NCBI RefSeq assembly: GCF_003334355.1 | Contig: NZ_QOWP01000050.1 | Direction: 5' to 3' (one strand) | Length of the DNA: 15,734 nucleotides | DNA from: Escherichia coli | Lineage (GTDB): Bacteria > Pseudomonadota > Gammaproteobacteria > Enterobacterales > Enterobacteriaceae | Shown here: positions 12,477 to 12,612 of the stretch, in pieces | How the letters are laid out: the number at the start of each line of letters is the position of its first letter | Position numbering within the stretch: position 1 is the first letter of the stretch | Position numbers and translations under genes: made by a program | The notes under the pieces: model-generated | Databases searched by the model: none | What the model saw: the letters and a program-made list of their open reading frames with translations, nothing else | Told to the model about the DNA's origin: nothing

Positions 12477-12612
12477 AGTTTGCTCCTGCCATAACGTGAA
12501 GAAGCAATGACCTGGTGGTCCGTGACTTCCCTACGCTGGCATTATCCAGATCAGGTGATACGGGTATTTCTCAGCCTTCACGCAGAAGGGCACCCCGAGT
12601 CGTTTGGTTGCG
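12477..12612 (-). ncRNA. TPP (thi-box) riboswitch and expression platform of thiMD
   Basis: Minus-strand sequence AACCAAACGACTCGGGGTGCCCTTCTGCGTGAAGGCTGAGAAATACCCGTATCACCTGATCTGGATAATGCCAGCGTAGGGAAGTCACGGACCACCAGGTCATTGCTTCTTCACGTTATGGCAGGAGCAAACT immediately 5' of the thiM ATG. It contains the conserved CUGAGA and ACCUGAUCUGGAUAAUGCCAGCG thi-box elements of the well-studied thiM aptamer. Confidence 0.85.

Follow-up and report, generated by a model that had tools for sequence, protein, structure and literature searches.

The closest described system is the TPP riboswitch in the thiM leader of Escherichia coli K-12. Selective binding of TPP by this leader was reported (PMC1920254; PMC2018614), and crystal structures of the thiM aptamer are cited in PMC1920254. 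In the TPP-free state nucleotides 71-86 were found paired with nucleotides 108-125, and the Shine-Dalgarno (SD) nucleotides 126-129 were chemically reactive only without TPP (PMC1920254). Formerly, the thiM riboswitch was described as strictly translational (PMC5499598). TPP was found to lower thiMD mRNA, an effect for which at least 34 thiM codons are required, and Northern data showed down-regulation of the whole thiMD operon (PMC5499598). Loading of Rho occurs near +200 at a rut site; Rho protects positions 201-210 and terminates at +231, +237 and +262, with termination "triggered as a consequence of translation repression" (PMC5499598).

Here, a stretch of 15,734 nucleotides of E. coli DNA (in the following "the window") was analysed. 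An initial annotation made from the letters of this stretch had called a TPP riboswitch at 12477-12612, with a thi-box aptamer on the minus strand immediately 5' of thiM. It had named a covariance-model scan as the check and a score below threshold as counterevidence.

Identity of the leader and its operon

Using the gathering score of 54.3 bits as cutoff, the Rfam 15 cmscan of the whole window found RF00059 (TPP) on the minus strand at 12607..12511 with 71.2 bits (E 1.2e-12). The match falls within the interval called by the initial annotation and covers model positions 1-105 of 105 without truncation. The called riboswitch, its strand and its aptamer were thereby confirmed, the score lying above the threshold. 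The aptamer's parts and the genes under its control are the following.

12511..12607, minus strand: TPP (thi-box) aptamer (RF00059)
12601-12598 with 12527-12524, minus strand: P1
12597-12594 with 12564-12561, minus strand: P2
12591-12585 with 12579-12574, minus strand: P3
12574-12569, minus strand: J3-2 junction CUGAGA
12555-12552 with 12533-12530, minus strand: P4
12549-12546 with 12539-12536, minus strand: P5
12474..12476, minus strand: thiM start codon ATG (the ORF starting there is thiM)
11688..12476, minus strand: thiM, hydroxyethylthiazole kinase, first regulated gene (TIGR00694, 335.1 bits, cutoff 256.4; RefSeq)
10891..11691, minus strand: thiD, HMP/HMP-P kinase, second regulated gene (TIGR00097, 362.6 bits, cutoff 204.95)

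According to the cmscan alignment, P1-P5 are all present, together with the conserved CUGAGA junction and the thi-box ACCUGAUCUGGAUAAUGCCAGCGUAGGGAA. Only two non-standard pairs occur in the helices present (the outermost pair of P1 and one position of P3), and the optional P3a helix is deleted. The thiM ATG lies 34 nt past the end of the Rfam match, and the start of thiD overlaps the stop of thiM by 4 nt according to the ORF coordinates. TIGR00694, TIGR00097 and RefSeq agree on the placement of the riboswitch directly 5' of thiM as the first gene of thiMD, in line with the initial annotation. Upstream, rcnR (12971..12699) is encoded on the same strand, with rcnA divergent. For annotation purposes the element is of value, as a cis-regulatory RNA is invisible to ORF calling; it accounts for the 222 nt left "empty" from rcnR to thiM.

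The DNA of the window is chromosomal E. coli sequence. A leader query of 501 nt was 100% identical to many strains and matched 5,425 of the 5,426 complete E. coli genomes. On the identical bases of a genome matching the query at 100% over its full length, RefSeq annotates a "TPP riboswitch" of 97 nt. The numbering of PMC1920254 (nt N = 12612-N) maps 1:1 onto the window for the switching strand (nt 71-86), the anti-SD (nt 108-111) and the SD (nt 126-129). Since many E. coli genomes match at 100% and the numbering fits, the element would be identical with that of K-12 (RF00059; PMC1920254, PMC2018614, PMC5499598), down to the operon and to the pairings of the ON and OFF states; a functional difference was not detected. 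We regard it as practically certain that the element is the E. coli thiM TPP riboswitch, a cis-acting 5' leader of the thiMD mRNA, and no evidence contradicting this identification was found. It is already known, and is the reference riboswitch of the family itself rather than simply one more member. Family membership, gene context, conservation and, in silico, both alternative pairings were obtained in the present analysis; binding of TPP, the chemical probing of the two states, the reporter fusions and the dependence on Rho come from the literature on the same sequence (PMC1920254, PMC2018614, PMC5499598).

Some further observations were made in the window. An antisense ATG ORF of 68 aa on the plus strand (12507..12713) spans the whole riboswitch and the promoter region; it is not annotated by RefSeq in identical genomes and is probably spurious. 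In yegX (glycoside hydrolase family 25, 10826..10008) an in-frame premature stop was found on the minus strand at 10599..10601 in place of a Gln of strain DA33133 (SRWQERIDW to SRW*ERIDW), and yegX is probably a pseudogene in the strain of the window. The other Rfam match was naRNA4 (RF02564, a nucleoid-associated RNA derived from REP) on the minus strand at 4586..4656, barely over its threshold with 62.7 versus 59.5 bits.

Alternative folds of the leader and their conservation

The features of the leader outside and downstream of the aptamer helices were assigned as follows.

12633..12661, minus strand: candidate sigma-70 promoter of thiMD, TTTACA, 17-nt spacer, TACCAT (consensus scan, 9/12 matches)
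12609..12625, minus strand: 5'-terminal leader hairpin UGCGAU-UUAUC-AUCGCA upstream of the aptamer (6-bp stem predicted in the free and in the aptamer-forced folds)
12526..12541, minus strand: switching strand, made up of the P5, P4 and P1 3' halves (base-paired to 12504..12487 in the ON state without TPP, by which the anti-SD is held)
12509..12520, minus strand: linker hairpin GACC-ACCA-GGUC between aptamer and anti-SD (folding)
12510..12477, minus strand: expression platform (the rest of the interval of the initial annotation, up to the base before the ATG)
12500..12507, minus strand: anti-SD strand UUGCUUCU (8 bp with 12487..12480 under the forced aptamer)
12483..12486, minus strand: SD GGAG, inside the sequestered segment AGGAGCAA (12487..12480)

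The promoter scan gave 3 sites versus 1.1 expected in shuffles and is weak when taken alone. The candidate promoter puts +1 at ~12625-12626. In the numbering of Bastet 2017, codons 9-40 correspond to nt 174-271, which places the AUG at ~+150 (PMC5499598). A transcript beginning at ~12625 would fit this numbering, and the position is regarded as a candidate start only. The SD-to-ATG string given in the initial annotation, GGAGCAAACTATG, was located at 12486..12474, with the SD GGAG at 12486..12483, a spacer of 6 nt and the ATG at 12476..12474.

In the unconstrained minimum free energy (MFE) fold, 12541-12537 paired with 12491-12487, 12536-12533 with 12497-12494, and 12531-12526 with 12504-12499. 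Nucleotide for nucleotide, this is the chemically probed TPP-free model of Rentmeister 2007 (PMC1920254). Ligand binding was mimicked by forcing only the Rfam aptamer pairs. The four bases of the GGAG were unpaired with probabilities of 0.75/0.69/0.68/0.20 in the free ensemble and of 0.00 throughout once the aptamer helices were forced, as an 8-bp helix of 12507-12500 with 12487-12480 formed in which UUGCUUCU pairs with AGGAGCAA. The mutually exclusive pairings of the anti-SD, either with the SD or with the 3' strand of the aptamer, were hence predicted at the published nucleotides. The initial annotation had stated that the SD is sequestered when TPP is bound, and the fall in accessibility from ~0.7 to 0.00 bears this out in silico. 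Relative to the free MFE, the forced-aptamer fold costs ~6 kcal/mol. TPP is bound with nanomolar affinity, which suggests that such a cost is affordable.

Shuffling of the linker yielded a mean SD accessibility of 0.31; 8 of 200 shuffles reached the observed value and 38 of 200 stayed at or below 0.05. Under this crude test, the SD occlusion is unusual yet not extreme. The stability of the unconstrained fold was not unusual either (MFE z-score of -1.05, not significant), as is expected for a bistable leader RNA. One difference from the published thiM model became visible. While the forced-aptamer fold hides the SD, the A and U of the AUG remain unpaired (0.99), whereas the published TPP-bound model sequesters the AUG as well (PMC5499598). 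In the same fold, the linker CAGGUC (12509..12514) pairs on the minus strand with GACCUG in thiM codons 4-5 (12462..12467). GACCUG is nearly invariant in 47 species yet coding, and its partner in the linker is Escherichia-specific. This pairing could add occlusion near the start codon, or could be a coincidence.

For a comparison across relatives, the aptamer-core pattern was searched in a species-representative genome set and found at no fewer than 120 loci. At 74 of the 120 core matches listed, a thiM homologue follows on the same strand. Where tblastn reaches residue 1, which holds for most of the 74 loci, thiM starts 48-57 nt past the core, compared to 51 nt in the window. A total of 47 distinct enterobacterial thiM leaders were aligned with MAFFT. 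We were aware of the fact that this cross-species set was picked by the E. coli core pattern, and that the invariance of P4 and P5 is given there by construction. P1, P2, P4 and P5 were 100% paired in the 47 leaders and invariant, in what is a closely related, core-pattern-selected set, so that their lack of changes counts neither for nor against covariation. For P3, compensatory double changes were found at 3 pairs in 6 of the 47 leaders (UA to CG, UA to AU, CG to UA). The sequence GACUCGGGGUGCC, which is absent from the search pattern, was invariant across all 47. CUUC and GGAG were 98-100% identical, with the last two bases of CUUC invariant; the SD:anti-SD core is itself invariant and therefore yields no covariation evidence. 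The linker hairpin differs in sequence between species and keeps its potential to form a hairpin, in a region which is poorly aligned by MAFFT.

Covariation of the platform by alignment column was blurred by linker indels: 31 of the 47 leaders appeared "unpaired" at columns 121:154 despite a visible covariation of UUG/CAA versus CG/CG. As the indels misalign the partners in the MAFFT columns, an alignment-free, constrained fold of each single sequence was employed. Forcing the aptamer lowered SD accessibility in 37 of the 47 leaders (Wilcoxon p = 2e-4). Accessibility fell below 0.1 in 22 forced leaders, every Escherichia leader included (0.64-0.69 to 0.00), and CUUC at +20 to +23 nt after P1 was the SD partner in 21-22 of them. 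The other 25, mostly of the Citrobacter type (CCCUUCU...GGGCAGGAG), showed an SD accessibility of 0.2-0.5 in both states and are ambiguous. From these models, the extended SD helix seems clear for Escherichia- and Enterobacter-type platforms and less clear elsewhere. The RNAalifold consensus recovered P2-P5 and part of the ON helix. It replaced P1 by a long-range pairing to the coding GACCUG; this replacement was not accepted as real structure and was treated as an artefact of the conserved codons.

Aptamer DNA as attachment site in other E. coli genomes

The DNA of the window also carries an unoccupied site for two families of integrating elements, given here without strand.

12529..12610: unoccupied 82-bp attachment segment of a ~7.7-kb integrase island (it flanks the island as a direct repeat in NZ_OZ197100.1)
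12558..12571: unoccupied attachment core of 14 bp, AGAAATACCCGTAT (read on the minus strand), of a cf-PICI-like satellite (attL/attR of NZ_CP043539.1)

Roughly 697 of 5,425 complete E. coli genomes (~13%) cover less than 80% of 12455..12700, i.e., are without the contiguous promoter-aptamer arrangement of the window. Three situations, in which integrative elements have recombined within the aptamer, account for them, namely the island with the 82-nt repeat, a remnant of this island, and a satellite which splits the aptamer. In NZ_OZ197100.1 the ~7.7-kb island (segment L126 41815..49644) lies between two direct copies of an 82-nt sequence, which corresponds to window positions 12610..12529 and comprises almost the entire aptamer. 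The island encodes a tyrosine integrase, an HNH protein, a recombinase-family protein, HTH proteins and hypothetical proteins, and its attL junction was detected in 179 of 5,426 complete genomes. Genomes bearing the island have two annotated TPP riboswitches. The aptamer copy on the thiM side is intact next to the island (71.2 bits). The second copy, behind the native leader and 66 nt upstream of the integrase, still exceeds the threshold with 61.3 bits, with a weakened P1.

In O157-type strains, e.g., RM19259, a 2.27-kb segment lies between rcnR and the aptamer, with its junction exactly at 12610/12611. This segment (L002 729..3000) replaces the 90 nt upstream of the aptamer (window 12611..12700), the promoter-like site and the 5' hairpin included. 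Because its right ~880 nt are 86.9% identical to the right end of the ~7.7-kb island, we read the segment as a remnant of that island. Strains with the remnant do not have the promoter-like site of the window, so that thiMD must use another promoter, which would differ between E. coli lineages. The promoter scan of the island-type upstream region gave no plus-strand candidate for a thiMD promoter. Among the ~697 complete genomes the aptamer is identical though everything upstream of 12610 is replaced, and the 5' leader hairpin is for this reason probably dispensable for switching.

The second element, of ~16 kb, was found inserted in NZ_CP043539.1, where attL and attR share the 14-bp core AGAAATACCCGTAT (segments L124 29100..45300 and L003 2990..3020). 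It encodes an integrase, an Icd-like protein, primase, SSB, PerC, capsid, protease, portal, connectors, HNH and TerS/TerL, with no tail genes. This gene set is that of the capsid-forming PICIs as described in bioRxiv 10.1101/2022.09.08.507074. Its junction was present in 76 of 5,426 complete genomes, including O157:H7 strains. The remnant left on the thiM side scored 36.9 bits versus the threshold of 54.3 bits and is without P3 and the CUGAGA junction. Just inside both ends of the satellite a perfect 70-nt direct repeat was observed (L124 29258..29327 and 45105..45174), and near its right end four copies of a 44-nt repeat (L124 44565..44866), with successive starts 54, 54 and 150 nt apart. These repeats may be integrase arm sites or iterons.

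The use of the aptamer DNA itself by both families was observed in other genomes. That this use has regulatory consequences for the integrase and for thiMD is considered unlikely. If it were the case, the island integrase would stand behind the native thiM promoter and a near-complete aptamer (61.3 bits), and its expression, hence the stability of the island, might follow the thiamine status. In silico, a strong local hairpin buries the SD of the integrase (GGGG) with and without the forced aptamer, the unpaired probabilities being 0.00-0.17 in all three states, and the probability of a TPP-switched integrase is low for this reason. Under the same premise, thiMD would be transcribed from an island-derived promoter in the island strains and in ~500 genomes with the remnant of the island, and with the cf-PICI-like satellite it would no longer be under TPP control at all. 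In the 76 satellite genomes, the only aptamer sequence in front of thiM is a remnant that should not bind TPP; thiamine salvage regulation would then be strain-dependent. The case would be an example of a riboswitch as target of mobile elements and could matter modestly. In the main text of the cf-PICI paper (bioRxiv 10.1101/2022.09.08.507074) the word "riboswitch" occurs 0 times, and no mention of thiM or of a riboswitch was found in the cf-PICI papers examined. A literature search for thiM as integration site of integrases or islands gave nothing relevant.

Mode of regulation and comparison with related systems

One additional feature, located in the coding region, bears on the output of the riboswitch.

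12407..12441 (about), minus strand: C-rich, G-poor tract at thiM codons ~13-23, rut site (composition and published position)

With +1 set to 12625, the region +185..+210 contains 36-48% C and 0-12% G in stretches of 25 nt, a composition in keeping with a rut site, and the tract coincides with the published one (PMC5499598). The termination sites +231, +237 and +262 would correspond to ~12395, 12389 and 12364, within 1-2 nt. The initial annotation had called the riboswitch textbook translational. This holds for the primary step, but is incomplete for the full output, as Rho-dependent termination follows (PMC5499598).

According to the favoured mechanism, scarcity of TPP lets the 3' half of the aptamer (12541..12526) pair with the anti-SD region (12504..12487). 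The SD GGAG (12486..12483) is then free, thiM is translated, and thiD follows by translational coupling. Upon binding of TPP, P1-P5 lock, the switching strand is withdrawn and the anti-SD UUGCUUCU (12507..12500) is released for pairing with AGGAGCAA (12487..12480), by which 30S binding is blocked. The untranslated 5' coding region of thiM then exposes the C-rich rut tract (~12441..12407), and Rho terminates ~30-60 nt past it, with a decrease of the mRNA of the entire operon.

In Firmicutes, a terminator platform is used by TPP aptamers belonging to this Rfam family, and a riboswitch attenuating transcription by a ligand-formed intrinsic terminator, as in many Bacillus thi leaders, has to be weighed for this locus. 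The drop of thiMD mRNA with TPP (PMC5499598) would agree with such a mode. However, a search for terminator-like sites (stem plus T-run) gave 0 hits in 12350..13150 on both strands, and the 34 nt between the Rfam match and the ATG are filled by the anti-SD and the SD. Moreover, published transcriptional fusions with 6-20 codons were unrepressed, and the effect on the mRNA needs at least 34 codons plus Rho (PMC5499598). The probability of an intrinsic terminator is therefore practically negligible. Also very improbable, if slightly less so, is a mode in which Rho termination or mRNA decay forms the primary output and SD occlusion is incidental. It could draw on the C-rich, G-poor tract at ~12441..12407, on the Rho, NusG and bicyclomycin data and on the TPP-dependent decrease of mRNA half-life (PMC5499598). 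Yet the same study places Rho termination downstream of translation repression, and a translational fusion of 6 codons without the rut region was still repressed by TPP (PMC5499598). The rut tract is, in addition, situated outside the riboswitch and needs the absence of ribosomes to be exposed.

No credence is given to the idea that conservation of the sequence is due mainly to its role as DNA attachment site of integrative elements, with its RNA function secondary, even though recombination within the aptamer is seen for two families with integrases (76 and 179 complete genomes). Integrases typically make use of conserved sequences that already exist, e.g., tRNA genes, and conservation explains the targeting, not the reverse. 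The aptamer is conserved together with thiM across Enterobacterales, and the changes in P3 are compensatory at the RNA level. Moreover, the island with the 82-nt repeat rebuilds an intact thiM-side aptamer (71.2 bits), which is consistent with selection on the RNA. The attachment site is an added role of the aptamer DNA and not a true alternative to the TPP riboswitch.

As integration target, the aptamer resembles the attB sites in tRNA, tmRNA and small-RNA genes, where tyrosine integrases likewise use conserved sequence encoding a structured RNA; a phage att site is reported in ffs, the gene of the 4.5S RNA (PMC12540744). Elements at such sites carry part of the target and rebuild one functional copy, as does the island here with its 82-nt repeat. 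In contrast, the known sites are stand-alone RNA genes, whereas the target at thiM is a cis-regulatory mRNA leader, and the satellite with the 14-bp core does not rebuild the aptamer.

Among the TPP riboswitches of E. coli, that of tbpA (thiB) has an aptamer of the same family and a secondary structure very similar to thiM; it is likewise primarily translational with a secondary effect at the mRNA level (PMC11487190). It controls the operon of the thiamine ABC transporter, and its mRNA effect needs 12 codons versus 34 for thiM (PMC11487190). The thiC riboswitch of E. coli shares ligand and family with thiM. There, Rho binds within the riboswitch domain itself and a regulatory pause occurs at the start site (PMC5234074), whereas the rut elements on which thiM depends lie in the coding region.
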